In this document: in pieces, positions 5,028 through 58,937 of the stretch
How positions within the stretch are numbered: position 1 is the stretch's first letter
Layout of the letters: each line of letters begins with the position of its first letter
Assembly (NCBI GenBank): GCA_023246655.1
Contig: JAHFHX010000002.1
Location: 31,693-95,692, forward strand
DNA length: 64,000 nucleotides
Origin: Candidatus Magasanikiibacteriota bacterium
Lineage (GTDB): Bacteria > Patescibacteriota > Patescibacteriia > Magasanikbacterales > GWA2-37-8
Direction: 5' to 3'
The notes under the pieces: generated by a model
The model's database searches: none
Told to the model about the DNA's origin: nothing
The model's input: the letters and a program-made list of their open reading frames with translations, nothing else
Program-made: the position numbers and the translations under genes

Positions 5028-5128
5028 TTTTAGTTGGTTTGCATTAATGTGGGAAAAAAGATGGCGACTTATCGCTTTCTCTTTCCCCACATTAAGCGCC
5101 ACATAACCGGCGCGATTAGGAGGGGTCC

Positions 5129-5935
5129 ATGGACGCACAACAGCAACTCCGCCGGAAATATGCCGGCAAAACGATCGTCGTAACAGGCGCCACGTCCGGC
5201 AACGGGCAGGCACTGGCCAACCTGCTGCTCGCCCTGGGAGCAGTGGTCATCGGCCTCGGACGGAACGTCGCCCGCCTCGCGGAGTTGGAATGCCGCGGAG
5301 GCATTCCGTACCAGCTCGACCTCAGCGACTTCGCGGCCATCGACGAATTCGTCACGTGGTTTGATTTGCATTATGAGCGATGCGATGGTCTCTTCCATCT
5401 GGCCGGGACGACGCTGGTGGGAGAGGCTGGTGCGGCTGAATTCCAGGCTTTCAAGGCAGCGGACCTGGATGGCCCCGTCCGCCTGGCGGAGGGGTTCTTA
5501 AGCACTATGAACCGCGGCGCAACTGTGGCGATGGTTTCGTCAATCGCCGCAGCTGTGCCCGAAGCGCATGGCCTCCGCCAGTATGCGGAGGTGAAAGGCG
5601 CTGTCGCGAGCTGGTGCGGGCAAAATCGCGCGCGGTTCACGGCGTCAGGCGCAAACCTGATGCTTATCGCAATGGGGGCGATCGCGACCAACGTTGGCCG
5701 CAGTGCCGGGTTGGGCGGCGCCTTTAACCGCGCAGCTGAAATGCTGCTGCCGCCCCCGGAGCGGTACTCGCCGCAAATTCTCAAGGACGCCGCCGCGGGC
5801 AAGCCTGCCAGCTTCCCCGGCCGCTTCGCAAGCCTGACCACCTACCAGAACGGCACCTGCCAAGTACGGGTCGGGCGCAAAGCGCTCGTTCTGGCACTCG
5901 AAGCAGGCGTTTGGTTCGCGCACCTCGGCAAGTAG
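5129..5935 (+). CDS. Short-chain dehydrogenase/reductase (SDR) encoded in a about 65% GC islet.
   Basis: TGATSGNGQA Rossmann motif, catalytic Ser (MVSS) and YAEVK (YxxxK). GC content contrasts with the neighbouring sequence. Confidence 0.75.
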   Translation: MDAQQQLRRKYAGKTIVVTGATSGNGQALANLLLALGAVVIGLGRNVARLAELECRGGIPYQLDLSDFAAIDEFVTWFDLHYERCDGLFHLAGTTLVGEAGAAEFQAFKAADLDGPVRLAEGFLSTMNRGATVAMVSSIAAAVPEAHGLRQYAEVKGAVASWCGQNRARFTASGANLMLIAMGAIATNVGRSAGLGGAFNRAAEMLLPPPERYSPQILKDAAAGKPASFPGRFASLTTYQNGTCQVRVGRKALVLALEAGVWFAHLGK

Positions 5936-6043
5936 GCACCCACTTGCGCAAGCAACAAACCAGCCCACAATGTCCTTAACGCAAGATTAATTAAAAACTC
6001 TTGCTCTGAGGACAGGGCTGGTTTTTTGATCTAGATACCAAAA

Positions 6044-6080
6044 TCCCCTCGCAACTACGAGGGGATTTTATTATTGTTTT
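6044..6080. terminator. Bidirectional intrinsic terminator.
   Basis: aaaatCCCCTCGcaactaCGAGGGGatttt is flanked by A and T runs and lies between a convergent gene pair. Confidence 0.6.
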
Positions 6081-6202
6081 TATCAGACCACCACAACTCT
6101 TGTCACAATCTAACTTGATCATGCTGAGAGTTGTGCGTGGTGGTCTGATTCCAGATTGCTCGCCCCCCGTCACTATTAACGGGGGGCACTGGTGCGGGCC
6201 GC

Positions 6203-6364
6203 CTAGCGGTGCGGCTGCGGGTGGTGGGTGGCGAACAGCCAACCCAACGCCGCCAGCCCGCCTACCGCCAACAGCCCGCCGGCCACGTTGTGGCCGGAAA
6301 GCCCCACGATGGGGCCGGACGCGGCGACGACCGCCGCGACCGTAATGCCAACGATGCGCTTCAT
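6203..6364 (-). CDS. Small hydrophobic peptide (about 53 aa) in the GC-rich islet.
   Basis: GGAGGAGGtgcccATG precedes MKRIVGITVAAVVAASGPIVGLSGHNVAGGLLAVGGLAALGWLFATHHPQPHR. Confidence 0.4.
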   Translation of the reverse strand: MKRIVGITVAAVVAASGPIVGLSGHNVAGGLLAVGGLAALGWLFATHHPQPHR

Positions 6365-6598
6365 GGGCACCTCCTCCCCCGCTTGCAAACAGCCTTTTGG
6401 CTGTATACCGCATAAGGAGGGGGGATCCCACACGGCAAGCAGAACATCTCTTAAAGATAGGCTACTTGCCGAGAAGGAATTACATTTAAAAAGAACTTAT
6501 TTTCTTTTATAACTATACAGAATAGCATAAAATTTTATTTTTGTCAAGTATTATTTACTCATTGAGTGATTTGTGTGGATAACTAATACCTTATATTA

Positions 6599-6627
6599 TT
6601 GACATAAAATGCGCTTTTACTTATACT
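6599..6627 (+). promoter_or_regulatory. Near-consensus sigma70 promoter TTGACA-N17-TATACT for the Met-rich gene.
   Basis: TTGACAtaaaatgcgcttttactTATACT. A structured about 80-nt leader follows. Confidence 0.55.
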
Positions 6628-6713
6628 TTAGCAAAGGTCGATGTAAAGTAAACTTTACTTTTTACTACCAAACCCTGGCACACAACCGTGCTTGGGTTTA
6701 AAAAATCACCTCT

Positions 6714-6980
6714 ATGATGAACAATGCCATGGGCGCTATGCCGATGATGGATGACGCCATGATGGTGGATATGATGAAAAAAAGCGGCATGCCGGCCGAC
6801 GACAAAATGATGATGGGCATGATGAAGGACATGATGATGGGTATGAACAAGATGACGATGCACATGAAGAAGAACTGCGGGATGAAGGATGAAGAGTGTA
6901 TGAAGTGCATGAATGCTTGCATGTCCATGATGATGGACCCCAAGATGATGGATGGAATGATGATGGACAAAACCATGTAA
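6714..6980 (+). CDS. Methionine-rich small protein (88 aa, 36 Met, 4 Cys).
   Basis: MMNNAMGAMPMMDDAMMVDMMKK...CGMKDEECMKCMNACMSMMMD. It has its own promoter upstream and a terminator downstream. The antisense His-rich ORF is the codon mirror of this gene. Confidence 0.6.
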   Translation: MMNNAMGAMPMMDDAMMVDMMKKSGMPADDKMMMGMMKDMMMGMNKMTMHMKKNCGMKDEECMKCMNACMSMMMDPKMMDGMMMDKTM

Positions 6981-7017
6981 TATGGCGCGGCGTTTTGAGC
7001 CACGTTTTTTAACATCA

Positions 7018-7047
7018 AAAAATCCCGAGTGTGCTCGGGATTTTTGT
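7018..7047 (+). terminator. Intrinsic terminator after the Met-rich gene.
   Basis: aaaaATCCCGAGtgtgCTCGGGATtttt. Confidence 0.65.
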
Positions 7048-7058
7048 TTCTTTGATAA

Positions 7059-7562
7059 TTAATTGCGAGCGCGTTTTTGTGGATCACGAAATATGCCGGG
7101 TAACGCTACATCTGACGGGACTATATAATTCAAACGGTCAATAAATGCCTGCCATTGGTCTGGCGCTTGTTCGGCAAAGGCAGTGTTAAAGGCATTCTGT
7201 AACGCCGCTTGGACCTCGGGAGCAGTTCGGAATCTCTCCACCCGCTTACGAATCGATGACAAAATTTCAGATCCCTCGATATGATCGAATGGTTTCGATT
7301 TAAGTCTAGAAAATGCGCGCGCGTTATCAAACGCAGCCACTTCCCCATTAGGGGCAACGAGAAAATTTGACTCACTACGATCGCAATTTAATGTTACCGC
7401 ATCAAGTAACGCAATTTTTTGGAGATCTTCTTTCGTAGCTTGCTTTTCCCAATGGATTCGAAGTGCTCGGTCGCCCTCTTTAATCCTGCACGGAACCAAA
7501 ACCATCTGGCCCATCACGAACAATTGTGGGCGGCACAATGTCGAGCTGTAAGGCTTTATCAA
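7059..7562 (-). CDS. Protein-kinase-like fold C-terminal fragment (DxxxxN ... FD catalytic-loop pattern). Possibly the frameshifted 3' part of 7480-8406.
   Basis: LDAVTLNCDRSESNFLVAPNGEVAAFDNARAF. It overlaps the upstream ORF by 83 nt in another frame and has a TTG start. Confidence 0.35.
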   Translation of the reverse strand: MIKPYSSTLCRPQLFVMGQMVLVPCRIKEGDRALRIHWEKQATKEDLQKIALLDAVTLNCDRSESNFLVAPNGEVAAFDNARAFSRLKSKPFDHIEGSEILSSIRKRVERFRTAPEVQAALQNAFNTAFAEQAPDQWQAFIDRLNYIVPSDVALPGIFRDPQKRARN

Positions 7563-8406
7563 TCTGGTAAGTTAGCCATTCGGGAAAAACACTCGCGCCT
7601 CGCACATCTTTTTTAAAATCAAAATTTTCCCGTTCACGGCGCGCCGCCTTATATATCCCCGGAATATTTCTCCCCTCAAAAATAAGAAATTGCGGCAGAC
7701 TCGCGGTTGTTCCTAATGAACCAATTTTTCTTATTGTCCCACGAAGTTCTTGCTCTATCTTTGCCCGTAAACGTTCTCGCGGCACCCGATCTGGCCACGC
7801 GCGCTCAGTCGCTAACAATAATTCCTGCTCAATGGTACGCGTTTCGGCAACCAATTCAACCGCACCATCCTGTTCAAAGGCCTCCTCTTGGCCTCTGTGC
7901 TCTGCTAACGTTTTACCAATTGTATCGGTGGGGATATCAAATTCCCGAGCAATAAGTGTTTTTTCGGCACCAACGCTTCGCTCAAATATTTCACGGATTG
8001 CATCACTCGAAAATTGTAACCCTCTCATTACACGCACCAATATTGCTGGATTGCCTCGAGCAATGTCAAAGGCTAAGGCCTGTTTTTCTTCGTCACAAAA
8101 ATCAATTTGCGCGTGTTCCTGAAATTTAAAAAATAGCTCCAGATTTTCTCGAGCAATAGAGAGACCGACTGATAATTTTTCTACCGGGGAGAACCCCATC
8201 GCTTCCAAGGAGGCCGCAATTGCTGGCATCCGCTCGCACACTGCTTTTACAAGCAACAGTCGTTCCGCATCATATGGTTCTTTTTTGAGCGCGGCTTCGA
8301 GTGCGAGCGTAATAAGAGAAGATGGCGGCGTTTTTTGTTCCCTATCTTTTTTGTCTCTTCTAAAAAAACTATCAACCATCCAGGCTACACGTTCTCTAAT
8401 ATTCAT
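7480..8406 (-). CDS. Hypothetical protein (possible N-terminal portion of a kinase-like protein).
   Basis: 308-aa ORF with no recognisable motif. Confidence 0.4.
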   Translation of the reverse strand: MNIRERVAWMVDSFFRRDKKDREQKTPPSSLITLALEAALKKEPYDAERLLLVKAVCERMPAIAASLEAMGFSPVEKLSVGLSIARENLELFFKFQEHAQIDFCDEEKQALAFDIARGNPAILVRVMRGLQFSSDAIREIFERSVGAEKTLIAREFDIPTDTIGKTLAEHRGQEEAFEQDGAVELVAETRTIEQELLLATERAWPDRVPRERLRAKIEQELRGTIRKIGSLGTTASLPQFLIFEGRNIPGIYKAARRERENFDFKKDVRGASVFPEWLTYQIDKALQLDIVPPTIVRDGPDGFGSVQD

Positions 8407-8424
8407 ACTCGGACTATCCCGTTT

Positions 8425-8718
8425 CTAAATTAGCTTCGGAGAAGCTACGACGAAATCGTTTACAACCTCTTCTTCCTGTACCGGCGTTGCAAATAGGTAC
8501 GCATTGTGAAAATGCCGTGATATCGCCTGCAAAAATACTTCACCGTCTTTTGGCAACACAGGAAGAGCGTTATCTTGAGATATTCCTTTTTCTAAAAGAT
8601 TGACTACCAATTCCTCTCCGGAACAGCGAACGGATCCATTTTCAAAAATACACCGTGCAACCACAGTGCCGCTCCATACAATAGCATTGAAACTAATTAT
8701 GTCTACCCATTTAGTCAT
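8425..8718 (-). CDS. Hypothetical small protein.
   Basis: 97-aa ORF positioned between the kinase-like gene and msrB. Confidence 0.3.
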   Translation of the reverse strand: MTKWVDIISFNAIVWSGTVVARCIFENGSVRCSGEELVVNLLEKGISQDNALPVLPKDGEVFLQAISRHFHNAYLFATPVQEEEVVNDFVVASPKLI

Positions 8719-8823
8719 ACTTCTTCGTTAAAATTGGTTTGTCCTTTACTACTGATCTAACTGCTTAAAATGTTAACACGTTTCACCTTTGCCAACAAAT
8801 TCATTTGCATCAAAAACTCTCCG

Positions 8824-9243
8824 TCATGGAGAGCTTTTGATTACTTGTGTATCTTTTTTCTTAAAATCCAGCGACGCCGAATTGATGCAAAACCGTTGGC
8901 CGGTGGGTTTAGGGCCGTCGTCAAACACGTGGCCGAGGTGGCCGCCACACCGGTTGCACATTACTTCGGTCCTTATCATGCCGTAGGTTGTATCGGAATC
9001 CATCATCACATTCTCCTTGGCTACTGGAGCATAAAAGCTGGGCCAACCGGTGCCAGAATCAAATTTGGTATCGGAGGAGAATAGCTCATTGTCGCAAGCG
9101 GCGCAGACGTACATCCCGGCATCGTGGTTATCCCAGTACTTGCCGGTAAAGGCGGCTTCGGTGCCTTTCTCAAATAGTACGTGCTTTTGTTGTGCGGTGA
9201 GAGTAACCATTTTTTGTGAATTGATATTAGGAGATATTTTCAT
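8824..9243 (-). CDS. msrB: Peptide-methionine (R)-S-oxide reductase MsrB.
   Basis: CAACDNELF...GTGWPSF...[21 protein letters not shown] (SelR fold, both CxxC pairs). Confidence 0.9.
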
Positions 9244-9286
9244 AGGACTATACTAAAACGGCGAGGCTGTTAGGATATTTTGTAGT

Positions 9287-9640
9287 TTAGTTTGGAATTT
9301 TTTTTACATAACCTTTCTTAAAATCCTCGATAAGGAATGACTTGGTTCCTTCGCCTTCATACACAACCCTCATGAGTTCATATGGAGTTTTGCCGAACGT
9401 GTTATAATCTAGCATAATAAAATCTTCTACCTCCCCCACTTTTCTTCCGTACTCTGTTTCAATTTCGACCCGATCACCTACTTTAAAACCAAGCTCGTTA
9501 AATTTCTGCTCCGCGGCCTTATTCGCTTCTTCGAATGATTTGTAATCTGGCAGCATTTCCCCCGCAAAAACTGCTCCATCATCACCAGGTGGGGGGGCGA
9601 CTCCTTTTTTACCTTCTTTGAAGAATCCAAACATATACAT
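9287..9640 (-). CDS. Hypothetical protein.
   Basis: 117-aa ORF embedded between msr genes. Confidence 0.35.
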   Translation of the reverse strand: MYMFGFFKEGKKGVAPPPGDDGAVFAGEMLPDYKSFEEANKAAEQKFNELGFKVGDRVEIETEYGRKVGEVEDFIMLDYNTFGKTPYELMRVVYEGEGTKSFLIEDFKKGYVKKIPN

Positions 9641-9676
9641 TTTTATATAATAAATCGAAACTTACATTATGAACGG

Positions 9677-10303
9677 TTAACGTTTGCGTTTGCTAGCGTT
9701 CACCGCATCCGGAATAAAAATAAGGGCGGCGCCGTTCATGCAGTAGCGTTTGCCGGTGGGGAGCGGGCCGTCGTCAAAGACGTGACCAAGGTGACCACCA
9801 CATTTAGATATTACCTCAACTCTGGTTTCAAAGGCAAGGGAGTGATCTTCTTTTATAACCACTGCGTCTGGTTTAATCGGCGCCCAAAAACTCGGCCAGC
9901 CGGTGCCGGAATCATATTTCTGCTCGGAGCGAAATAGTGGTTCACCACAATCGGCGCTCACGTAGGTGCCCGGACGCGTTTCAAAATCCAGGGGGCTACT
10001 AAACGGGCGCTCCGTTCCCTTTTGACGAAGAATATAATACTGCTCGGGCGTAAGTTTGCGCCGCCACTCAGCGTCGGTTATGCTGATGGTGGCAATGGGA
10101 GTGGAAGAAGCACGCATCTCGAAAGTGCTTTTACGACGAGCATCTAAATTTTGTCCGACACGAAACGCCCAACCAATTTGGCCAATCGCAAGAGCAAAGC
10201 TCAGCACTACGGTGATGACGAGGATAATGAGAATGATTTTATACGAATGGGACATGATGTGATGGTTGGAAATTATGTAAAGAGGTCTGGCTTCTTTACA
10301 CAT
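9677..10303 (-). CDS. msrB: MsrB with an N-terminal transmembrane anchor (likely extracytoplasmic).
   Basis: [21 protein letters not shown] helix, then ADCGEPLF...GTGWPSF...[15 protein letters not shown]. Confidence 0.85.
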
Positions 10304-10784
10304 GACACGTTCCTAACCCGCGTTTGTGCAAATACTGCTGGTGATATTCTTCCGCGCGGTAGAATGGCTCGGCGGGAACAATTTGGGTGACAATTGGATT
10401 TTTGAATTTGCCGGACTTATCCATCATTTCTTTAGACGCGCGAGCCACTTGTTCTTGCTCGGGAGTGTAGAAAAAAATGACCGAGCGATATTGACTGCCA
10501 TAATCTGGTCCCTGGCGATTCATGGTGGTGGGGTTGTGGTTTTCCCAAAAAAGTTTTAATAATTGTTCATAGCTAACCCTGCTAGGATCATATGTAATGT
10601 GCACAACTTCAGCATGACCAGTATCATCGCTGCAGACATTTTCATAACTTGGATTTTTCTTGGTACCGCCCATAAAGCCTGCGGCGGTTTCTACCACACC
10701 GGGAATGACACGAAATAATTCCTCTACTCCCCAAAAACAGCCGGCGCCAAAGGTGGCTTCTTGTGACTTTATTGAATTTTCCAT
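10296..10784 (-). CDS. msrA: Peptide-methionine (S)-S-oxide reductase MsrA.
   Basis: [15 protein letters not shown] active-site motif. The stop overlaps the downstream msrB start. Confidence 0.9.
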
Positions 10785-10944
10785 AAAAAATGTATATACT
10801 AGACTAAAGAAGTCAGCAAGGACCGGCTTCTGTTAAAATCAGTATATTATATTTAAAACTATATGTCAAGTATACTTGACATAGATAATTAATTTAAGTT
10901 ACAATTAGTGGGCTTACACGTTTGGCATAATTGTCCTCCCCTTA

Positions 10945-11050
10945 CGAAGGGGAAGTACGGAGGGGTCAACGCTTTGTGGCGATGCAACGTAGACCACCCC
11001 ACGCCCCTTCCTTCGGCAAGCTCAGGACAGGCTCTTCTTAAGGAGGGGAC
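10945..11050. repeat. Family-C GC-rich hairpin element (CCTCCCC-loop-GGGGA...) in the intergenic region.
   Basis: tcCTCCCCttacgaaGGGGAagtacGGAGGGGtc...ccccacgcccc... Confidence 0.4.
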
Positions 11051-11089
11051 AAACACGAAGATCTTCATCAATTTAACTCTCAACAACTT

Positions 11090-11452
11090 ATGCAATTCAA
11101 CAAGCTCACCCCCGAAGAAGAAGCTATCATTATTCATAAAGGCACCGAACGCCGCGGCAAGGGCGAATATACTGATACATTTGTGGAAGGCACCTATGTA
11201 TGCCGTCAGTGCAATACGCCGCTCTACACCTCGGACAGCAAATTCCACTCCAATTGCGGCTGGCCAAGCTTTGACCAGGAAATTCCTGGCGCCGTTAAAC
11301 GCACACTGGATGCGGACGGCTCACGCACCGAGATTACGTGTAACGCCTGTGGCGGCCACTTGGGCCATGTGTTTGTAGGCGAAGAATATACTCCAAAAAA
11401 TACTCGCCACTGCGTAAACTCACTCTCATTAAAATTTATTCCGAAAAAATGA
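11090..11452 (+). CDS. msrB: MsrB (third paralog).
   Basis: [24 protein letters not shown]...[14 protein letters not shown]. Confidence 0.9.
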
Positions 11453-11465
11453 ACACGATTTTAGT

Positions 11466-11726
11466 TTAAACCCCCAGAGCCTGATCAATTTTTACTTTGT
11501 CAAATCCTATAATAATCGTACCGTTGATATCAATAACTGGTACCCCCATCTGGCCGGATTTGTGAACCATCTCCTCAGCTTTTGTCTGATCCTCAGCTAC
11601 ATTATAATCCGTAAAGGCAATATTTTTAGATTTAAGATAATCCTTAACTTTATGACACCACGGACACACCGGCGTGGAATAAATAATCACTGACGAATTT
11701 GCCATTGTATTTTGCATACAATACAT
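11466..11726 (-). CDS. Glutaredoxin-like protein (NrdH/YruB type).
   Basis: VIIYSTPVCPWCHKVKDYL...GVPVIDINGTIIIGF. Confidence 0.8.
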   Translation of the reverse strand: MYCMQNTMANSSVIIYSTPVCPWCHKVKDYLKSKNIAFTDYNVAEDQTKAEEMVHKSGQMGVPVIDINGTIIIGFDKVKIDQALGV

Positions 11727-11845
11727 AATTAATAATGAATTATAAATATAGTATATAATGCAATTTTAAAAAAGTCAAATTGACTTTACTCTTGCTTTAA
11801 AATACCTGTTGACAATATGCTCTGGTTCTACTACTATTTAGTAAT

Positions 11846-12058
11846 ATGAAAGAAACTATTCGTAATCGCGTCAACGAACTACGAACTGCTAATGCTATTA
11901 CCCAAGAGGTGCTCGCCGAGTCGGTGGGAGTAACCCGCCAGACTATTATTGCAATTGAAAAAGGTAATTATATCCCTTCAGTTTTATTAGCTTTAAAAAT
12001 TGCACGTTTTTTTAAGAAATCAACAGAAGATATGTTTTCTATTATTTATGAAAAATAA
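11846..12058 (+). CDS. XRE-family HTH transcriptional regulator.
   Basis: VLAESVGVTRQTIIAIEKGNYIPSVLLALKIARFF. A TTGACA-N17-TACTAT promoter lies at 11809-11837. Confidence 0.8.
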   Translation: MKETIRNRVNELRTANAITQEVLAESVGVTRQTIIAIEKGNYIPSVLLALKIARFFKKSTEDMFSIIYEK

Positions 12059-12419
12059 ACGACTGTGGAATGAAGCAACTTTATCGGTTCTGCTTATTGC
12101 TCTGGCTTCCCTCTGTTTAAAACCCTTAGAACAAATGTGGATGCCGAGTATGTATTCCTCACTCATACTTATTGCTTTAGCGGTTGTTTTTATTTTCTTA
12201 GCTATTTTTATTTGGAAAGAAAATGTACGAGATGAGCGCGAAAATCAACACCGCTTAATGGCCGGCCGATTTGGTTTTTTGGTGGGGGCAGGCACGCTGG
12301 TGGCCGGGATTATCATCCAAACCCTCCATGAACAACTAGACTCATGGCTTTTGGTAGCGCTCATCGCCATGATTATTGCTAAAATTGGAGGGCATGTGTA
12401 TTACCAATCTAAAAATTAA
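12047..12419 (+). CDS. Small membrane protein partner of the XRE regulator.
   Basis: The ATG overlaps the regulator stop. It has 3 hydrophobic segments. Confidence 0.45.
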
Positions 12420-12518
12420 GCGCGGTGATCTTATCCACATTGCAAGGTGTAAAGTTTACTTTACACCTTTTTTAATTGTGATATACTACCATTCAATTAG
12501 ACTTAACTTCACAACACT

Positions 12519-13103
12519 ATGCGCAAAACATCTCGTTCGCTCGCAGCGCTGGCTGTCGCGTTCATGACGCTGGGCGCTGGCTGTGCCCAGGCTCCGCAAG
12601 CCGCAGTCCAACCGGCCGCGGAACAAACCGAAAGCACGGCGATGGAACAAACAGTGCCAGGCTCTACCGAAGGCGTGATGGAAAAAAAAACCGAAGCCAC
12701 AATGCAGCGGCAGGAACCGGCGATGGCACAATTCACCGGGACGGTGCTGGCTGGAAAATCCGTCCCGCTTTTGGACTTTAACAAAAGCGATTATGACATG
12801 GCTATAAAATCGGACAAACTCGTGGTGCTTTATTTTTACGCTTCATGGTGCCCGGAGTGCCAAATCGAGTTCCCTAAAATGCAAGCCGCGTTTAACGGGC
12901 TCACCGGCGACAAGGTGGTTGGCTTCCGCGTAAACTTTAATGATTCCGATACCGATGACACTGAACAATCCCTGGCACGCGAATTTGGTGTGGCCTACCA
13001 GCATACCAAAGTGTTTGTGAAAAATGGGACGCGTGTCCTTAAGGCACCGGATTCGTGGGATACGGAGCGGTATATGACTGAAATCGCGAAAGCGATACAA
13101 TAA
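12519..13103 (+). CDS. Thioredoxin-fold lipoprotein (TlpA/ResA-like redoxin).
   Basis: Signal peptide plus lipobox LGAGCAQ, and the YASWCPECQ CxxC motif. Confidence 0.75.
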   Translation: MRKTSRSLAALAVAFMTLGAGCAQAPQAAVQPAAEQTESTAMEQTVPGSTEGVMEKKTEATMQRQEPAMAQFTGTVLAGKSVPLLDFNKSDYDMAIKSDKLVVLYFYASWCPECQIEFPKMQAAFNGLTGDKVVGFRVNFNDSDTDDTEQSLAREFGVAYQHTKVFVKNGTRVLKAPDSWDTERYMTEIAKAIQ

Positions 13104-13257: not shown

Positions 13258-13968
13258 ATGTCCCCCACCAACCTCATTTTCTCTTTCACCGCCGGGCTCG
13301 TGTCGTTTTTGGCGCCGTGCGTCCTCCCCATTATTCCGGGCTTTTTGGCCTACCTCGCGGGGGCGTCCTTGGCGGACAGCACGGGGTCAAAGCGCAAAGA
13401 CGTGTTTATCAATAGCGTATTTTTTGTGCTGGGATTTTCGCTGGTATTTGCGGCACTCGGAGTGCTTTTGAATTCGGTACTGGAACGGGTGGCGTATGAT
13501 GTGCAAATTTGGCTGGGGCGCGTTGGGGGCCTCATTATTATTTTCTTTGGGCTGTATTTGACGGGGCTTATTAAAATTGGATTTTTAGAGAAAGAGTATA
13601 AGTTTAAAGTCACCACGAAATTCAAATCAAAATATCTTACGTCGCTTTTGTTTGGCGCGGCGTTTGCAGCCGGGTGGACGCCGTGCGTGGGGGCGGTCTT
13701 GGGCGGCATTCTGGCGCTCGCAGCCTCACAGCCCGGCTCGGCTTTTGCTCTCCTGCTTTCGTATTCACTAGGCCTGGGAGTACCCTTTCTGATTGTGGGG
13801 TTATTTGCCGCGCCAGCTTCGCGCCTCATCAATCGTTACGCCGGCGCCCTTAAGTACGTTAACTTTATCTTTGGGCTCATCCTCATCGCACTCGGAGTTT
13901 TGATTTTTACGAACAGTTTAAGTTTGGTTGCGAACTTTTCTTTGTTGAATAAGTTTTTGTTGAAATAA
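13258..13968 (+). CDS. ccdA: Cytochrome c-type biogenesis / thiol-disulfide transporter CcdA (DsbD core).
   Basis: FLAPCVLPIIPGFLAYLAG and GWTPCVGAVLGGILALA, the two conserved Cys-containing TM motifs. Confidence 0.85.
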   Translation: MSPTNLIFSFTAGLVSFLAPCVLPIIPGFLAYLAGASLADSTGSKRKDVFINSVFFVLGFSLVFAALGVLLNSVLERVAYDVQIWLGRVGGLIIIFFGLYLTGLIKIGFLEKEYKFKVTTKFKSKYLTSLLFGAAFAAGWTPCVGAVLGGILALAASQPGSAFALLLSYSLGLGVPFLIVGLFAAPASRLINRYAGALKYVNFIFGLILIALGVLIFTNSLSLVANFSLLNKFLLK

Positions 13969-13991: not shown

Positions 13992-14159
13992 ATGTTCTCT
14001 AGCCGACAAGTTACCTTCATCGTTCTCATTGGCGCTATCATCGCCGCGATTGCCTATCTGCAATTCCGTCAGCCGGTACGTCGCATTACTTCGTCGGCGC
14101 CTTCAATCGCGGTTGACCCGTACGCCAACCAACCTCCCCAACACCAACTGAAGAGGTGA
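13992..14159 (+). CDS. Small TM-helix ORF, a possible frameshifted N-terminal anchor of the next redoxin.
   Basis: MFSSRQVTFIVLIGAIIAAIAYLQF... The 14156 ORF frame is open upstream (PTSPTPTEEVTT) and joins at the ccaaccaacctcccc tract. Confidence 0.3.
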   Translation: MFSSRQVTFIVLIGAIIAAIAYLQFRQPVRRITSSAPSIAVDPYANQPPQHQLKR

Positions 14160-15244
14160 CTACGACCGCGCCAGAAAATGGCGCGATGATGAAAAAAGAA
14201 ACTCTCATCGTTAAACCAGCGATTAAACCAGCGGCTCAACCAGTGGCACCAACCCCTCAGGTATTGGTGAATAAAGCTAATAAATATCCAGCTGCCCGTG
14301 AGCTCGTGAGCCCAAGCGGATTTATTAATACGCCGCCGTTCACTCTCAAGAACCTGGTGGGCAAGAAAGTAATTCTCGTGGATTTTTGGACCTACAGTTG
14401 CATCAACTGTCAACGGACGCTCCCCTACCTTAACGCTTGGTACGATAAGTATAAAAACAAAGGATTGGAGATTGTGAGCATTCACACCCCGGAATTTGAT
14501 TTTGAGAAAAAATACGACAATGTGCAGGCGGCAGTACAAAAATACGGCATCAAATATCCAGTTGTAATGGATAACGATTATGCCACTTGGGACGCGTATC
14601 AAAATCGCTACTGGCCGCGCAAATATCTGGTGGATGTGGACGGCTACATTGTGTATGATCACATCGGCGAGGGCGGTTACGAAGAAACCGAGGCCAAAAT
14701 TCAGGAGCTCTTGGAAGAAAAAATGGCGCGCGAAGGCAAAAAAGATACGGTGGTGGACGGCTATGTAAAACCCTCCGGCGCCGTGACGATTGAAGCGGGA
14801 AGCCCGGAGACCTACTTTGGTTCCGCGCGCAATACCTACCTCGCGAACGGGGACGCGGGCAAGGCTGGCGAACAAAAGCTGACTGAACCATCCAACCTGA
14901 ATTTAAACGAGCTCAACCTCGCTGGCACCTGGAACTTTGCCCCCGAGTATGCCGAAAACACCACCGCCGGCGCTAAAATTATCTATCGCTACCAAGCAAA
15001 GGGCGTGTACTTGGTAGGCAGCGCAGTGAACGGCGTCCGGGCGCGCGTGCTACGCGACGGCAAACCGTTGACGAGTGCTGAAGCCGGCGAAGATGTCATT
15101 CTCAAAGACGGCCAAAGCTATGTGACGTTTAAGGAAGATCGCCTCTATAAAATTATCCAAGACAAAAACGGCGCCGGCGAACATACGCTTGAAATTATTA
15201 TTGAAGCGCCCGGCCTTAAAGCATTCGCGTTTACGTTTGGATGA
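14156..15244 (+). CDS. Thioredoxin-like redoxin (TlpA family) with a C-terminal extension.
   Basis: VILVDFWTYSCINCQRTLPYL...YPVVMDNDYATWDAYQNRYWPRKYLVD. Confidence 0.75.
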   Translation: MTTTAPENGAMMKKETLIVKPAIKPAAQPVAPTPQVLVNKANKYPAARELVSPSGFINTPPFTLKNLVGKKVILVDFWTYSCINCQRTLPYLNAWYDKYKNKGLEIVSIHTPEFDFEKKYDNVQAAVQKYGIKYPVVMDNDYATWDAYQNRYWPRKYLVDVDGYIVYDHIGEGGYEETEAKIQELLEEKMAREGKKDTVVDGYVKPSGAVTIEAGSPETYFGSARNTYLANGDAGKAGEQKLTEPSNLNLNELNLAGTWNFAPEYAENTTAGAKIIYRYQAKGVYLVGSAVNGVRARVLRDGKPLTSAEAGEDVILKDGQSYVTFKEDRLYKIIQDKNGAGEHTLEIIIEAPGLKAFAFTFG

Positions 15245-35384: not shown

Positions 35385-38300
35385 CTACACTACTATACTT
35401 ATTAATTTCCCCCTCACATAAATCACCTTCTTCGGCTCTTTACCATCCAGCCACTTCTGAATTTTTTCGCTCGCGAGCGCTTGGTTTTTAATTTCGTCTT
35501 CGGATATATCAGCTGGCACCTCAAGCTGCTCACGCACTTTGCCATTTACTTGAACAACAATGGTGATCATGGACTCTTTGGCGAGCTCGGGATCAAACTT
35601 TGGCCAAGGGGAATACGCTAATATCTCTTTATCTCCATATAACTCCCATAATTCCTCCGCAATATGTGGGGCAAAAGGTGAGAGAAGTTGAATTAATATT
35701 TGATATTGGATATTAGATATTTTTTCTTCTTTCATCATTTCATTCGTGAGTTCCATCAGCTTCGCAATGGCAGTATTAAAATGCATTGCTTCGATATCAT
35801 CGGAGACTTTTTTGATGGTTTGATGAAGAAGGGTCGTTATCTTGTCATTGCGAGGAGCCGAAGGCGACGCGGCAATCTCCCCTTTTGACTCTTGTCGGGG
35901 GGATTGCTTCGCTCGTTCCTCGCTCGCAATGACACGTTCTTGAAGTGACCATACCCGATCCAAAAATCTCCGCACGCCAACCAACCCATTCGTATCCCAC
36001 TTCACCGCCTGATCAAACGGCCCCATGAAACCAATATACGCGCGAAAAGCATCCGTACCAAATTGTTCAATCATTTCATCGGGGTTGATAACATTCCCGC
36101 GGCTCTTACTCATTTTCTCACCATCCGGACCCAAAATCATGCCATGACTGGTACGTTTTTTATATGGCTCGCGCGTAGGCACTACGCCAATGTCGTATAA
36201 AAATTGATTCCAGAAACGGGAATACAATAAGTGAAGCACCGTGTGTTCCATGCCGCCGTTATACCAATCAACACCACCCCCGCGTTTGTCATCCCGAGCG
36301 AGGCTCGCGCCGACGAGGGATCTCTGTCCGTCGGTTGGTGAGTGAGCCAGAGATTCCTCCTTCGTCGTCGGAGTGACAGGATTACCATCCATCCAGTACC
36401 GCAGCTTCTCCATTGATGCAAATTCTTTATCGTTATTCGGATCCGCGTATCTTAAGAAATACCAAGAAGAACCGGCCCAATTCGGCATAGTATCAGTTTC
36501 CCGTTTCGCTGGTCCGCCACAACGTGGGCAGGTGGTGTTCACCCAATCACTCATCGCCGAGAGCGGACTTTCGCCCGTGTCGGTTGGTTCGTATTTTTCT
36601 ACTTTGGGGAGTTTGAGTGGGAGTTCGGACTCGGGAAGCGGGATCCAGCCGGTTTGTTCTAATGCTTTGAGAATTTCTGGTTCCTGGCCATCATTGGTAA
36701 AATGTTGGGCAACTGGTTCCACGAATTGAGCTGAAGCGTGCATTGCTTTCATCATTTCTCGTGCCTGATTTTCTGGAATTACTGGAAAATTTTTATCAAC
36801 TACAAGCACAATTTCTTTCGCGTTTTTTTTAATTTTCTCAAAATTAAATTGCCAATTGAAACTTTGCTCAACTTCCGGTCGTGCGCGATCAGCAAATTCG
36901 GGACGAATAAAACAATCAACCAAAACAAGTTTCGCGATTGTTTTTTTTAAATGTTCTACCAAATTCATGGCTACAGCTCCACCAAGGCTCGTGGCAACAA
37001 TAACAGTGTTTTCGTTTATTTCTGTTTTTTCCAATACCGATTTTACTTGTTCCTCAATATTTGGCTGCATCGGGTTTGGGAGGTCTGGTGCAAATACCGT
37101 ATGACCTTGTTTTTCTAGTTCTTCTTTAAGCCGCGGGAAAAATATTCCTTGAGAGCTGCCTTTGAATCCATGAAGTAAAATATAGTTATATTTTTTCTTT
37201 CTGCAATTCTCACATTTTACGAGGGGAATCGGTTCGCCCCAGTAGCGCTGACGAGAGAAAACCCAATCGCGGAGTTTGAAATTAATCTGCCGACGAGCCA
37301 TTCCTTTTTGCTCTAACCAAGGTAAAATCTTTTCGCGCGCTTCCGCAGAAGTTAAACCATCAAACTGACCGGAGTTAACCAGAGTGCCTTCACTGGGGAA
37401 GCACTCTTCTAACTTTTGCACGCGCTCCCACAGCGCATCGTCGGCTGGTCGGATAGAAACTTTGAGCGGCAGGCTATATTTTTTAGCCATAGCAAAATCG
37501 CGCTCGTCGTGGGCATCGGCAAATACCGCGCCAGTGCCGTACTGAGCTAACACAAAATCGGCAATCCAAATAGGCATTTTGTCGCCGGTTGCTGGGTTCA
37601 GTGCATACGATCCGGTGAAGACCCCCGACTTGTCCTTTTCTTCAGCAGTACGTTCGATGTCAGTTTTTTGCGCAGTCTCCTGAACATATTTTTCAACCGC
37701 TTTTTTCTGTTCGGGAGTAGCTAATTGTTTTACGAGCGGGTGTTCAGGTGCAATGACTAAGAATGTACCCGAAAAAATGGTGTCGAGTCGGGTGGTGAAG
37801 ACTTCGATTGGTTGAGACAGGGATTCCTCGTCGGCGCGAGCCTCGCTCGGAATGACAGTAAAACGGACGACAGCCCCTTCCGAGCGCCCAATCCAATTTT
37901 CCTGTTGCACGCGCGCGGGAGTAATATAGTTAACTTCTTTGAGACCGTCGAGGAGTTTATCGGCATATTTGGTAATGGCAAGCATCCACTGCTCTTTATC
38001 TCGTTTTTCCACGGGCGTGCCACAACGTTCACAACAGCCGTCCACCACCTCTTCATTAGCGAGGCCAGTCTTATCTTTCGGACACCAATTAACAGGCTGA
38101 TTTTTTTTGTAAGCTAACCCGTGTTTATATAATTGTAAAAAAATCCACTGCGTCCATTTGTAATATGTGGGATCGGTGGTATCAACAGCGCGCGACCAAT
38201 CAAAACTATAGCCCAACGCTTTAAGCTGGCGGGTGAAATTGGCAATATTCTCGGCCGTAACTTCCGCGGGTGGGCGACCGGTTTTAATCGCAAAATTTTC

Positions 38301-38558
38301 GGTGGGGAGTCCGAAGGCATCAAAACCAATTGGATACAAAACATTAAAACCTTCCATTCTTTTTTTGCGTGAAATTACATCCATGGCAGTGAAAGGACGC
38401 GGGTGGCCGACGTGCAAGCCGACGCCAGAGGGATATGGGAATTCGATGAGGGAATAAAATTTTTGCTTCTTGGTGTCTTCTTTGACCTCAAAGGTTTTAT
38501 TTTTCTCCCAATATTTTTGCCATTTTTTTTCAATTGATTTGGGGTCGTATTTTTTCAT
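35385..38558 (-). CDS. leuS: Leucyl-tRNA synthetase with intact CP1 editing motifs, an inserted alpha/beta-hydrolase domain and three repeat inserts.
   Basis: HVGHPRP (HIGH), KMSKS, TTRLDT and AHDERD (CP1). The ORF spans 1057 aa versus about 800-880 aa typical. Confidence 0.9.
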   Translation of the reverse strand: MKKYDPKSIEKKWQKYWEKNKTFEVKEDTKKQKFYSLIEFPYPSGVGLHVGHPRPFTAMDVISRKKRMEGFNVLYPIGFDAFGLPTENFAIKTGRPPAEVTAENIANFTRQLKALGYSFDWSRAVDTTDPTYYKWTQWIFLQLYKHGLAYKKNQPVNWCPKDKTGLANEEVVDGCCERCGTPVEKRDKEQWMLAITKYADKLLDGLKEVNYITPARVQQENWIGRSEGAVVRFTVIPSEARADEESLSQPIEVFTTRLDTIFSGTFLVIAPEHPLVKQLATPEQKKAVEKYVQETAQKTDIERTAEEKDKSGVFTGSYALNPATGDKMPIWIADFVLAQYGTGAVFADAHDERDFAMAKKYSLPLKVSIRPADDALWERVQKLEECFPSEGTLVNSGQFDGLTSAEAREKILPWLEQKGMARRQINFKLRDWVFSRQRYWGEPIPLVKCENCRKKKYNYILLHGFKGSSQGIFFPRLKEELEKQGHTVFAPDLPNPMQPNIEEQVKSVLEKTEINENTVIVATSLGGAVAMNLVEHLKKTIAKLVLVDCFIRPEFADRARPEVEQSFNWQFNFEKIKKNAKEIVLVVDKNFPVIPENQAREMMKAMHASAQFVEPVAQHFTNDGQEPEILKALEQTGWIPLPESELPLKLPKVEKYEPTDTGESPLSAMSDWVNTTCPRCGGPAKRETDTMPNWAGSSWYFLRYADPNNDKEFASMEKLRYWMDGNPVTPTTKEESLAHSPTDGQRSLVGASLARDDKRGGGVDWYNGGMEHTVLHLLYSRFWNQFLYDIGVVPTREPYKKRTSHGMILGPDGEKMSKSRGNVINPDEMIEQFGTDAFRAYIGFMGPFDQAVKWDTNGLVGVRRFLDRVWSLQERVIASEERAKQSPRQESKGEIAASPSAPRNDKITTLLHQTIKKVSDDIEAMHFNTAIAKLMELTNEMMKEEKISNIQYQILIQLLSPFAPHIAEELWELYGDKEILAYSPWPKFDPELAKESMITIVVQVNGKVREQLEVPADISEDEIKNQALASEKIQKWLDGKEPKKVIYVRGKLISIVV
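35843..35934. repeat. Family-A element, in frame in leuS (residues about 875-905).
   Basis: The peptide is ASEERAKQSPRQESKGEIAASPSAPRNDK. Confidence 0.75.
36287..36378. repeat. Family-B element, in frame in leuS (residues about 727-757).
   Basis: gtcatcccgagcgaggctcgcgccgacgagggatctctgtccgtcg...gagccagagattcctc. Confidence 0.7.
36675..37196 (-). other. YdeN/RBBP9-like serine-hydrolase (alpha/beta-hydrolase) domain inserted inside LeuRS, about residues 455-628.
   Basis: YILLHGFKGSS...LPNPMQP...ENTVIVATSLGGAVAM...FNFEKIKKNAKEIVLVVDKNFPVIP...HF, flanked by CENC (res 449-452) and CPRC (677-680). Confidence 0.6.
37812..37857. repeat. Partial family-B element, in frame in leuS (residues about 234-249).
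   Basis: gagacagggattcctcgtcggcgcgagcctcgctcggaatgacag. Confidence 0.6.
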
Positions 38559-56837: not shown

Positions 56838-56911
56838 GTCAGGGTAGCTCAGACGGTTAGAGCGTAGCATTCATAACGCTAAGGTCGAGGGTTCAACTCC
56901 CTCCCCTGACA
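56838..56911 (+). tRNA. tRNA-Met (anticodon CAT, elongator-type; possibly Ile2-lysidine).
   Basis: GTCAGGGTAGCTCAGACGGTTAGAGCG...loop TTCATAA...GGTTCAACTCCCTCCCCTGACA. G1-C72 are paired, and there is no GGG/CCC run in the anticodon stem. Confidence 0.8.
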
Positions 56912-57304
56912 CACGGACGACGCCCAACTTTCGGCGTTGTGGACAACCAATTTGACCGGAATTTATACATAATATAAAATTAATTTAGTTCTTTCACAGT
57001 TTACTATCATGAGCGGTGCGAGGGAATCGGCCCTAAGACCACCCAGCAACCCCAGCTAAGTTTGGGGTGCTAATTCCGACCCTAAAAATAGGATAGGGAA
57101 AGATACGTCCCAATGCAGCTGTTGGAAATTGGCTTACATAAAGGCTCGTAACTCTTCCATCATTTTGGGGTTAGGAGCCTTTTTTGTTTTTAGCGAAAGA
57201 TATAGCACAGTAAATTGGCCGGACGATTGAATGACTTACTATAAGTTATACAACCGTCCGGGCAAAGCTGTTCAACCAAGCCCCGGATAGGATGGAGACC
57301 AGCG

Positions 57305-57496
57305 ATGGTCAGGCGTACCCCCGAGGAGATCGATAAGATCTCCGCCCCCAGCCTCAATTACAACCGCTTCACCACGGAGGAGGATGCCCGGCGCAATCGC
57401 GCCCGGCTCCCGCCGGACCATCCGCTCTATGAGCCCCTCCCGCCTGATGAGGCGTTGCGGGCTCTCTCCCCCACCCGCCCCCGCGCTTGCGCCTAG
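57305..57496 (+). CDS. Hypothetical 63-aa ORF in a about 65% GC islet.
   Basis: GGATGGAGaccagcgATG. Followed by a long hairpin. Confidence 0.3.
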   Translation: MVRRTPEEIDKISAPSLNYNRFTTEEDARRNRARLPPDHPLYEPLPPDEALRALSPTRPRACA

Positions 57497-57542
57497 CACC
57501 CCCAACCCTACTCTTGCGTTCCAAACTCGTAGGAGAGGCCGA

Positions 57543-57606
57543 GACGAGACCGCATCCCAGCTTATGTATTTAAATTTTTAAATACATAAGCTGCGGTCTC
57601 GTTAAT
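57543..57606 (+). terminator. Long imperfect hairpin terminator.
   Basis: gaccgcatcccagcttatgtatttaaa/tttaaatacataagctgcggtc. Confidence 0.5.
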
Positions 57607-57644
57607 TGGGCGCTCTACATCTGCCTACATAAGGCATTTTTTGT

Positions 57645-58937
57645 TTGCAAAAAAAAGATAAATCATGTAACGTGGAACACATGGCGTGTAAACTTACCGA
57701 CAGGTTCCACGTTTCACCTTATACGCTACATAATATGCTCGTTCTCGGTATCGAATCCTCTTGTGATGACACTTCCGTTGCCCTCGTCGACTGCTCCGAT
57801 CGAGGTCATGTTATTATTGCGGAAAAAATGGCGTCACAAATTGATATCCACACAAAATATGGCGGCGTAGTGCCAGAAATTGCCGGCCGGATGCATGCGG
57901 AAAAAATTGTGCCGCTCATTGAGGAGGTGATGAACGAGGGAAATAAGGAAATAAAGAAACAAGGAAATAGTGAGACAGTGGATAAACTAATTCATCCCGA
58001 CGTCATCGCTGTCACCGCCGGGCCGGGGCTCATCACGGGGCTCATTGTTGGGGTGGAGGCAGCGCGGACATTGTCGTATGCTTGGAATATCCCTCTGATT
58101 GCAGTGAACCATATTGAAGGACACATCCACAGCGTGGAAATTTCAAATAACAAATTCCAAATATCTTCCTTTCAATCAGGAAATGCAAATAAAATCCAAA
58201 ATCCAAAATCCAAAAACGATTCGTCTGCTCCCTACTCCCTACTCCCTACTCCCTTAATTGACTTCCCTGCCCTTTGCCTCGTAGTGAGTGGTGGTCACAC
58301 GGAATTAATTTCGATGAAAGATCATGGCGACTACAAAATTCTGGGGAGCACTAAAGATGATGCAGCAGGAGAATGTTTTGATAAGGTGGCTAAGTTACTA
58401 GGTCTCCCCTACCCTGGTGGACCGCAAATTTCACGGCTGGCAATGAGCGGGCGCACTGATGCGATTAATTTTCCGCGACCGATGCTTAAAGAAAAAAATT
58501 TTGATTTTAGTTTCGCTGGACTCAAAACTGCTGCCCTTTATTGGCTACGTGATAATGCGCAAACAGATTCTTCCACCTACCACCTACCACCTACCGGCCT
58601 AGCAGATTTCTGTGCTAGTTTTGAACAAGCTATTGTCGATGTATTAGTTGGTAAAGCCCTGCGCGCAGCTGAGGAAATTAAACCCAAAACGATTATCCTT
58701 GCCGGCGGCGTCGCCGCGAATAAAAAACTTCGCGAAACTCTCGGAGCACATATTCAATATCGTAATTCGGACGAACAGCCGTTTGCCCCTATAATCTACC
58801 TCTTACCAACTACCTCCTACGCCATGGACAACGGCGCAATGATTGCGGTGGCTGGATACTATCATGCCATCAAAAAAGAATTTACTGATTGGGATAAAAT
58901 TACGGTTGATCCAAATTGGAAAATAGAAAAATTATAA
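57645..58937 (+). CDS. tsaD: tRNA N6-adenosine threonylcarbamoyltransferase TsaD with low-complexity inserts.
   Basis: LVLGIESSCDDTSVALV...AVNHIEGHIHS...GGVAANKKLRE. Confidence 0.9.
   Translation: MQKKDKSCNVEHMACKLTDRFHVSPYTLHNMLVLGIESSCDDTSVALVDCSDRGHVIIAEKMASQIDIHTKYGGVVPEIAGRMHAEKIVPLIEEVMNEGNKEIKKQGNSETVDKLIHPDVIAVTAGPGLITGLIVGVEAARTLSYAWNIPLIAVNHIEGHIHSVEISNNKFQISSFQSGNANKIQNPKSKNDSSAPYSLLPTPLIDFPALCLVVSGGHTELISMKDHGDYKILGSTKDDAAGECFDKVAKLLGLPYPGGPQISRLAMSGRTDAINFPRPMLKEKNFDFSFAGLKTAALYWLRDNAQTDSSTYHLPPTGLADFCASFEQAIVDVLVGKALRAAEEIKPKTIILAGGVAANKKLRETLGAHIQYRNSDEQPFAPIIYLLPTTSYAMDNGAMIAVAGYYHAIKKEFTDWDKITVDPNWKIEKL
58191..58253 (+). repeat. Two adjacent 7-bp x3 tandem repeats (aaaatcc x3, then ctcccta x3) inside tsaD.
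   Basis: aaaatccaaaatccaaaatcc...ctccctactccctactccctactccc. The third array ccaccta x3 is at 58574-58596. Confidence 0.7.

Follow-up and report, generated by a model that had tools for sequence, protein, structure and literature searches.

The 64,000-nucleotide stretch of DNA analysed here (the window), from a contig of Candidatus Magasanikiibacteriota, carries a small transcription unit whose open reading frame (ORF; 6714-6980, + strand, 88 codons plus a stop) specifies a protein with 36 methionines, or 41% of its residues. An initial annotation, made from the letters alone, had singled out this unit as self-contained, and its description of the individual elements holds. Transcription would be driven by a sigma-70-type promoter, TTGACA-N17-TATACT (6599-6627, + strand), which scores 11/12 in a consensus scan and is thus indeed near-consensus; the hexamers and the 17-nt spacing are those of the msrA-operon promoter described below, and the predicted start lies at ~6634-6636. 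The leader that follows contains a 30-nt hairpin (AAACCC-U-GGCAC / GUGCU-U-GGGUUU; 6670-6699, + strand) that ends 14 nt before the start codon. That this leader is structured, as had been proposed, is borne out by folding of 6634-6725, which gives a minimum free energy of -23.4 kcal/mol and a z-score of -3.78 against dinucleotide shuffles, with 1/200 folding as well, and the hairpin is present in the centroid structure too. Rfam assigned the leader to no family and found no S-adenosylmethionine (SAM) riboswitch, T-box or other Met-sensing element in it. Downstream, a bidirectional intrinsic terminator (7018-7045, both strands; 12-bp stem with an A-run before and a T-run after) is common to the Met-rich gene and the convergent - strand genes. 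A Shine-Dalgarno motif is absent, but because the genome rarely uses one (7/47 long ORFs of the window), this is not evidence against translation. With a promoter and a terminator of its own the unit looks monocistronic, and computation shows the Met-rich feature to be a genuine, independently transcribed + strand gene, consisting of promoter, ~80-nt leader, 88-codon ORF and bidirectional terminator.

The composition of the encoded protein is extreme. The 36 in-frame ATG triplets compare with 5 and 0 in the other two + strand frames, and the runner-up in Met content among stop-free segments of at least 60 codons in the window has 12.9%; we know of no natural protein denser in Met than 41%. Lysine (11 residues) and aspartate (10) are frequent, K/D/E together make up 26%, and F, I, L, Q, R, W and Y are all absent. 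The four cysteines lie at positions 55, 62, 65 and 69 (C-x6-C-x2-C-x3-C, as annotated), and the one histidine is H50. A microsatellite origin was considered and rejected, Tandem Repeats Finder reporting only short, weak period-12/21 arrays of 40-59 nt. The frame opens 4 codons before the ATG, so that no hidden signal peptide is possible, and by inspection the N-terminus (MMNNAMGAMPMMDDAMM) has no basic n-region, uninterrupted hydrophobic core or signal-like segment; the earlier statement that a signal peptide is missing therefore stands. In the helical spacing of its Met, Cys and charged residues the protein does not differ from shuffled sequences, leaving the idea of an amphipathic bundle unsupported. 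An AlphaFold2 (AF2) model is of low confidence (pLDDT 60.6; nominally four helices), and Foldseek found no match to it in the PDB. The product would thus be a cytoplasmic low-complexity protein built of Met and Lys/Asp spacers, with a conserved C-terminal four-Cys cluster.

Relatives, selection and assembly support

A word-indexed search through 5.8 billion proteins and HMMER, run exhaustively on 1.84 billion cluster representatives, yielded a sole relative among about 15 billion predicted proteins: P0001, an 86-residue protein with 85% identity encoded on a 683-bp contig of ENA assembly ERZ27296333. P0001 begins and ends with the same residues, has each of the four Cys and likewise contains 36 Met (of 86 residues). 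The best-conserved block is the Cys cluster, with 13 identical residues (CMKCMNACMSMMM). Changes are concentrated outside Met, having occurred at 2/36 Met positions vs. 13/52 others (Fisher p = 0.02). In a neutral simulation, in which random nucleotide substitutions accumulated until the observed 13 amino-acid differences were reached, a mean of 5.9 Met positions changed and a stop codon arose in 30% of the runs; the probability of at most one Met substitution was 0.0018, and that of retaining at least 35 Met was 0.007. Met is therefore retained far above neutral expectation, which places the ATG triplets under purifying selection. Neither Pfam nor NCBIfam assigned the protein to a family (E <= 1-10). 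Pfam matches to PRESAN and PSK at E <= 10, and matches to zinc-finger linkers in a PDB sequence search (E 0.03-0.5), were discarded as chance, and four metagenome matches to the Cys-cluster pattern were rejected because they are artefacts of translated simple repeats (CMNK or CMYV). Back-translated N-terminal peptides found no match in GTDB genomes or JGI metagenomes.

The origin of the window can be judged from RF1, encoded 2.3 kb away, which is 75% identical to a protein from a Patescibacteria metagenome-assembled genome (MAG) and 60% identical to one from a Magasanikiibacteriota MAG. The closest RF1 relatives being MAGs of Patescibacteria, or Candidate Phyla Radiation (CPR), the window comes from a CPR bacterium, in keeping with the reduced genome assumed at the outset. 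None of 80 RF1 loci (1.36 Mb) contains a Met-rich ORF or an msr cluster, and synteny with the closest of these relatives stops at a small-MDR gene.

Two independent assemblies, Logan SRR14366783 and ENA ERZ27276474, contain DNA identical to the Met-rich ORF and its flanks, and a 7.7-kb ENA contig joins the ORF to the whole msr/thioredoxin (Trx)/CcdA cluster. These contigs (L001, L002 and L003), together with L089, represent the window's own population (identical or 99.95%) and so provide assembly support and no information on divergence. Gene callers predicted the + strand ORF in two assemblies, as 88 aa in L001/L003 and as 87 aa in L002; the shorter form is merely another choice of start codon and was rejected as a variant. 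Neither form is found in a 15-billion-protein collection that does contain neighbours from the same 115.5-kb NCBI contig, which suggests that the NCBI annotation did not call the ORF. If the gene is real in the sense proposed below, this apparent omission illustrates how compositionally extreme small genes can escape catalogues.

A palindrome shared with the msr and thiol genes

The Met-rich ORF lies 1.84 kb from a cluster which, as noted in the initial annotation (at about 1.8 kb) and confirmed by Pfam, comprises genes for methionine sulfoxide reductases (Msr), i.e. msrA and three msrB, together with thiol-relay genes. A k-mer comparison of the region upstream of the Met-rich gene with the rest of the window revealed an element common to the two, an 18-bp palindrome, TGTMAAGT-NN-ACTTKACA. 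At up to 3 mismatches it occurs 6 times in the 64 kb vs. 0.82 times expected, a number reached by 0/100 shuffles, and 5/6 sites belong to promoter regions, either that of the Met-rich gene or those within the msr/thiol cluster. One lies in the Met-rich leader at approximately +7 to +25 (TGTAAAGTAAACTTTACT, 6642-6659, 1 mismatch). A perfect copy (TGTCAAGTATACTTGACA, 10864-10881) provides the -35 box for the msrA-operon promoter as well as for the msrB3 promoter divergent from it, and another (TGTAAAGTTTACTTTACA, 12448-12465) lies over the -35 of the trx-ccdA promoter; the leader and trx copies share an exact 17-nt match (6642-6658 and 12449-12465). Two weaker sites have 3 mismatches each: one at 11773-11790, between the divergent genes for glutaredoxin (Grx) and a helix-turn-helix (HTH) protein and over the grx -35, and one at 6542-6559, over the -35 of a divergent - strand promoter (6547->6519) and centred 100 bp from the leader site. 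A promoter scan places a good sigma-70-type promoter at every cluster site, where the right half-site of the palindrome doubles as the -35 box.

The window was also scored with a weight matrix built from three sites of other genomes only. Among the ~64,000 window positions scanned, the top four were 12448 (score 22.5), 10864 (18.1), 6642 (17.0) and 11773 (13.2), followed by a fifth at 9.1; the site at 6542 scored low. The leader site has no -10 after it and is thus not itself a promoter. Being past the -10 of the Met-rich promoter, it could serve only to bind a protein or to form a hairpin in the RNA, in a position suited to a roadblock. The presence of the same palindrome in the Met-rich leader and at the msr/thiol promoters means that the link between the Met-rich gene and the msr genes exceeds mere proximity. 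The shared motif places the Met-rich gene in a palindrome-defined redox-stress regulon, probably under a common DNA-binding protein.

The putative msrA operon (7059-10784, - strand) converges on the Met-rich gene. It contains msrA (162 aa, 10296-10784), a transmembrane (TM)-anchored msrB (9677-10303), a 117-aa protein without a Pfam or NCBIfam match between two msrB genes (9287-9640), a second msrB (MsrB1, 8824-9243, the gene closest to the Met-rich ORF among those confirmed as msr), a 97-aa protein without assigned family (8425-8718) and a split PI3/PI4-kinase-like/SCO1664-family gene represented by two overlapping ORFs (7480-8406 and 7059-7562). There is no terminator-like site on the - strand between msrB1 and the downstream unknown and kinase-like genes, so the operon may run as far as the terminator it would share with the Met-rich gene. 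The split in the kinase-like gene is identical in three assemblies, while a metagenomic homologue (L004, 418 aa) is intact; it could represent a frameshifted pseudogene or programmed frameshifting. The kinase-like gene of L004 also adjoins a homologue (45% identity) of the 97-aa ORF.

On the far side of the divergent promoter are msrB3 (120 aa, 11090-11452, + strand; SelR, E = 7e-42), a glutaredoxin gene (11466-11726, - strand), the HTH gene and its partner discussed below, and, on the + strand and all recognised by Pfam, genes for a secreted or anchored thioredoxin (12519-13103), a CcdA/DsbD membrane protein (13258-13968) and a Redoxin plus Thioredoxin_10 protein (14156-15244). The msrB3 leader (10906-11089) is unusually long (~180 nt between promoter and ATG) and GC-rich; as a candidate riboswitch it was rejected, with no Rfam match and a folding z-score of -0.9. 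Judged by their lengths and domain spans, MsrA and the two short MsrB proteins have no signal sequence or TM segment, and could therefore share a compartment with the Met-rich protein.

A candidate regulator and its module in other CPR genomes

A candidate for the protein that binds the palindrome is encoded within the cluster itself, by a gene for a 70-aa XRE-family HTH protein (11846-12058, + strand; Pfam HTH_3/HTH_19). It overlaps by 11 nt a gene for a DUF2178-like membrane protein (12048-12419, + strand), a possible sensor partner. The HTH protein has 2743 homologues, and those with a source name are all from CPR phyla. We examined the loci of seven homologues with 77-80% identity, and in all of them the HTH gene heads the same module, in the order HTH protein, 121-aa membrane protein, in some cases Grx, anchored Trx, CcdA and Trx-like protein. 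The gene after the HTH gene encodes a 121-123-aa partner in L089-L099; in L100 it is 92 aa long and does not overlap. In the relatives the palindrome precedes the HTH gene by ~64 nt and trx by ~75 nt and has 0-2 mismatches (L090, 7937 and 8844; L092, 2794; L096, 9697; L097, 129 and 1035; L098, 7355 and 8004; L099, 3289 and 4193; L100, 6753 and 7657), and the equivalent of the trx site in the window is kept in the loci L090-L100, which represent several distant CPR lineages. These observations suggest that the binder is probably the 70-aa XRE-family regulator, acting together with its DUF2178-like membrane partner, and that it would repress all palindrome-bearing units. In that case the Met-rich gene would be co-regulated with msrA/msrB, grx and trx-ccdA. 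Palindrome and XRE regulator together appear to define an undescribed CPR regulon.

The relatives also show that Met-rich segments occur elsewhere under the same operator. In five of them the operator-controlled thioredoxin carries, between its TM helix and the Trx domain, a K/D/E linker with 20-28% Met (8-11 Met in 40 aa; e.g. KDAMMEKKDGEMMKDDSMMKKDEGAMMDKGETMMK). These proteins are encoded at 8918-9565 in L090, 2875-3510 in L092, 1110-1760 in L097, 8080-8874 in L098 and 4268-5059 in L099, the last two also having an N-terminal extension with two CxxC pairs. In the window's orthologue the N-terminus resembles a signal peptide, and the linker is poor in Met (4 Met in 40 aa). The linkers share with the Met-rich protein the operator regulon and a style of Met with Lys/Asp/Glu (MMKKD, MMKDD, AMMDK), but they are less dense in Met, are anchored on the outer side of the membrane and form part of a protein with a Trx domain. 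Homology between the linkers and the Met-rich ORF is not significant (blastp E ~0.5), so that the likeness is compositional only. As far as can be read from these loci, Met plus Lys/Asp/Glu segments are a recurrent feature of the palindrome regulon. No msr genes and no free Met-rich ORF were found beside the module in the relatives examined; both the 41%-Met gene and the msr genes seem to have been added in this lineage only.

Proposed function of the Met-rich protein

Three roles had been suggested for the protein in the initial annotation, namely an Msr-rechargeable antioxidant sink, a Cu(I) sponge and a store of methionine. The palindrome common to the Met-rich leader and the msr/thiol promoters favours the first of these, and the other two rank lower. 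We propose, with a probability of roughly 0.4, that the Met-rich protein is a cytoplasmic sacrificial Met sink recycled by co-regulated MsrA and MsrB, an analogue of MrpX, the Met-rich peptide of Azospira suillum, to which no homology was detected. Derepression of the regulon would lead to accumulation of the protein, whose 36 thioethers would react with oxidants such as HOCl/chloramines and peroxides to give Met-S-O and Met-R-O. Co-induced cytoplasmic MsrA (for the S-form) and MsrB1/MsrB3 (for the R-form) would then reduce the methionine sulfoxide (MetSO) with electrons from Trx/Grx. In this way an organism whose antioxidant repertoire is very small would gain a sink that disposes of oxidants catalytically, and the four Cys may provide a structural metal, redox or docking site. 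For the steps of translation, regulator binding, oxidation and repair, we infer all of this from the DNA. A wider formulation is more tentative still: the protein might be a Met-dense, rechargeable cytoplasmic Met/MetSO buffer that forms one output of an undescribed, CPR-wide envelope/oxidative-stress regulon (XRE repressor, DUF2178-like partner and palindromic operator) to which Met-rich segments, tethered or free, are integral.

A number of observations weigh against a rechargeable Met sink. The gene stands outside any msr operon and is convergent to one. Only two members of the family are known, both from uncultivated populations. Elsewhere in the regulon the Met-rich segments lie outside the cytoplasm, but this protein lacks an export signal. 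The palindrome half-site resembles a -35 box, so that its recurrence at promoters could partly be promoter similarity. The low pLDDT, the lack of a Foldseek match and the absence of Met periodicity leave no structural argument. The assignment of the strand relies on the geometry of promoter, terminator and operator only, and the selection on Met is strand-symmetric, a point taken up below. Finally, the conserved Cys4 cluster is unexplained by a pure Met sink, and this keeps alive a second explanation, that the protein binds soft metals.

According to this second explanation, Met thioethers, the four Cys and the one His would hold Cu(I), Ag(I) or Hg(II), protecting a cell poor in metal efflux; the overlap between copper and thiol/oxidative stress would account for membership of the regulon. 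We consider such a thiophilic-metal buffer possible but, on balance, doubtful. The ligand set (36 Met, four conserved Cys and H50) is of the soft-metal type, and the sequence contains MxxM 11 times, MxxxM 16 times and MxM 10 times, although such motifs are trivial at 41% Met. The Cys cluster is the best-conserved block, where a pure Met sink needs no Cys, and C62, C65 and C69 are spaced i, i+3, i+7 along a predicted helix of the low-confidence AF2 model. Known soft-metal binders include the Mets-motif proteins CusF, PcoC, CopC and Ctr1, SilE/PcoE, and the DUF326 copper storage proteins Csp1 and Csp3. The Met-rich protein resembles these in its ligands and its predicted helical secondary structure, and its C-x2-C-x3-C spacing resembles one DUF326 repeat unit. 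However, no match to DUF326/Csp or another metal-binding family was obtained in Pfam even at E <= 10, whether for the whole protein, P0001 or the isolated Cys segment, and there is a single Cys cluster rather than the Cys-lined bundle of the Csp proteins. Met-rich Cu(I) sites are typical of oxidising extracytoplasmic compartments, where the Mets-motif proteins reside, whereas cytoplasmic Cu(I) buffers use Cys; the Met-rich protein, with no export signal, would be cytoplasmic. In addition, Pfam detected no metal-homeostasis or metal-resistance gene (CopA, CopZ, CsoR, CueR, Mer and the like, or cop/cus/sil/pco) in the cluster or among the ~40 larger ORFs of the window.

A more basic question is whether the + strand product exists at all. 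The alternatives are a non-coding transcript or an antisense product, either His-rich (6621-6863, open to ~7058) or Ile-rich (6698-7087). The His-rich frame had been mentioned in the initial annotation and does exist; both antisense frames are stop-free over the whole Met-rich ORF, conservation of ATG is conservation of CAT (His) on the opposite strand, so the selection test cannot choose between strands, and the + strand ORF is apparently uncalled in the NCBI record. Very His-rich proteins such as Hpn exist. Nevertheless, promoter, operator, leader and terminator all face the + strand, and a promoter-like site sought on the - strand between 6863 and 7060 was not found. The terminator hairpin (7018-7045) has a T-run on either strand, so that transcription arriving from the convergent - strand operon should end before the Met-rich region. 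The first start of the His frame is a GTG at 6863; a product begun there would leave out the C-terminal third with its Cys block, which is just as conserved. An Ile-frame product would have to contain the terminator hairpin within its coding region and run over the end of the kinase-like gene. No expressible - strand ORF of the Hpn kind, with start, promoter and terminator, is apparent. Two independent pipelines called the + strand ORF, and P0001 was likewise called in the Met frame. We therefore regard a translated + strand product as very likely, an antisense His-rich product as unlikely, and non-coding and antisense explanations taken together as improbable.

A redox sensor or decoy is a more doubtful proposition again. 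Here the Met/MetSO or Cys state would report oxidative load, and the protein might titrate Msr or signal to the XRE regulator or the DUF2178-like partner. The operator, the conserved Cys4 cluster and the small, low-complexity sequence with no predicted stable fold would suit such a role, but the 11/12 promoter suggests abundant expression rather than a stoichiometric regulator, and a sensor does not need 36 Met. Least probable, and to our minds scarcely so at all, is a Met reserve that an auxotrophic, host-dependent CPR cell degrades at Met/SAM scarcity or upon oxidative loss of Met: the extreme Met density, the constant Met count of the two homologues (36 and 36), the use of a SAM riboswitch elsewhere in this organism (57002-57109) and the usual lack of amino-acid biosynthesis in CPR bacteria speak for it, but the leader has no Met-sensing element recognised by Rfam, control is apparently via the redox-regulon operator instead, the conserved Cys cluster is left unexplained, and synthesis of the protein itself demands abundant Met.

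Comparison with known systems

The closest parallel to the proposed Met sink is MrpX, which contains 20% Met and 44% charged residues, is oxidised by HOCl and then restored to its reduced form through a Met-sulfoxide reductase, has a signal peptide, resides in the periplasm, and is co-transcribed with yedYZ/msrPQ under SigF/NrsF (Melnyk et al. 2015, PMC4436054). Both proteins are small and consist almost only of Met and charged residues, and in both cases there is a genetic link to genes for Met-sulfoxide reductases and to a regulator dedicated to stress. Sacrificial oxidation of Met followed by enzymatic regeneration would be the logic of either system as proposed, and in this respect the comparison with MrpX made in the initial annotation was apt. 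The Met-rich protein does not belong to the MrpX family, however. It has more Met (41%) and fewer charged residues (26%), no signal peptide by inspection, and a conserved Cys4 cluster. Instead of being co-transcribed with yedYZ, its gene is monocistronic and converges on the msrA/msrB operon, and an operator of the XRE type appears to control it; no YedY or YedZ is encoded in the cluster, where the neighbours are thiol-dependent MsrA/MsrB. The host is a CPR bacterium and not a member of the Proteobacteria. Pfam/NCBIfam profiles and HMMER, which retrieved P0001 only, detected no homology to MrpX, the two proteins having been compared by description and not directly by sequence.

The cluster as a whole recalls a different set of systems, the extracytoplasmic CcdA-thioredoxin-MsrAB repair pathways exemplified by CcdA/Etrx/MsrAB2 of Streptococcus pneumoniae and by PilB of Neisseria. 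Like these, it combines CcdA, a secreted or anchored Trx, a Trx-like protein and a membrane-anchored MsrB. To our knowledge, neither a stand-alone Met-rich protein nor an XRE/DUF2178-like pair with a palindrome is known from such systems. A literature search returned no paper on Met-rich proteins in Patescibacteria, none that mentions DUF2178 (full text), and only passing mentions of Msr in CPR bacteria. On the proposed model the protein would be a Met-rich scavenger coupled to Met-sulfoxide reductases and set in a regulon that itself appears undescribed.

If correct, the proposal would for the first time set a cytoplasmic counterpart beside the periplasmic MrpX system, and would also be the first such case in the CPR, whose members have few recognised antioxidant enzymes and a poorly understood oxygen tolerance. 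With 36 oxidisable sites in 88 residues, the protein would be an extreme natural case for Met residues as catalytic antioxidants. The operator and regulator pair offers a concrete regulon for bacteria in which almost no transcriptional regulation is defined, and the recurrent Met-rich linkers in thioredoxins suggest that such segments may be an overlooked, general part of extracytoplasmic thiol-redox systems.

Other features of the window

Upstream of the Met-rich gene, 5100-6450 forms an island of 62-70% GC, against 45% in the genome. On it are a gene for a short-chain dehydrogenase (5129-5935), whose Shine-Dalgarno motif (AGGAGG) is strong in a genome that rarely uses one, and a small hydrophobic ORF (6203-6433, - strand). 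The assemblies L001/L003 and L002 both end at 6441-6508, the right border of the island, which points to DNA recently inserted by horizontal transfer, to variation between strains or to a join made during assembly. Further away, a SAM-I riboswitch (57002-57109; 57.9 bits, above the gathering score) directly follows tRNA-Met (56838-56912); no recognisable Met/SAM gene comes after it, 57110-57645 (530 nt) containing only short GC-rich ORFs before the TsaD gene. Lastly, the leucyl-tRNA synthetase (35385-38558, - strand; 1057 aa) has an apparent inserted alpha/beta-hydrolase or serine-hydrolase domain at residues 460-614.

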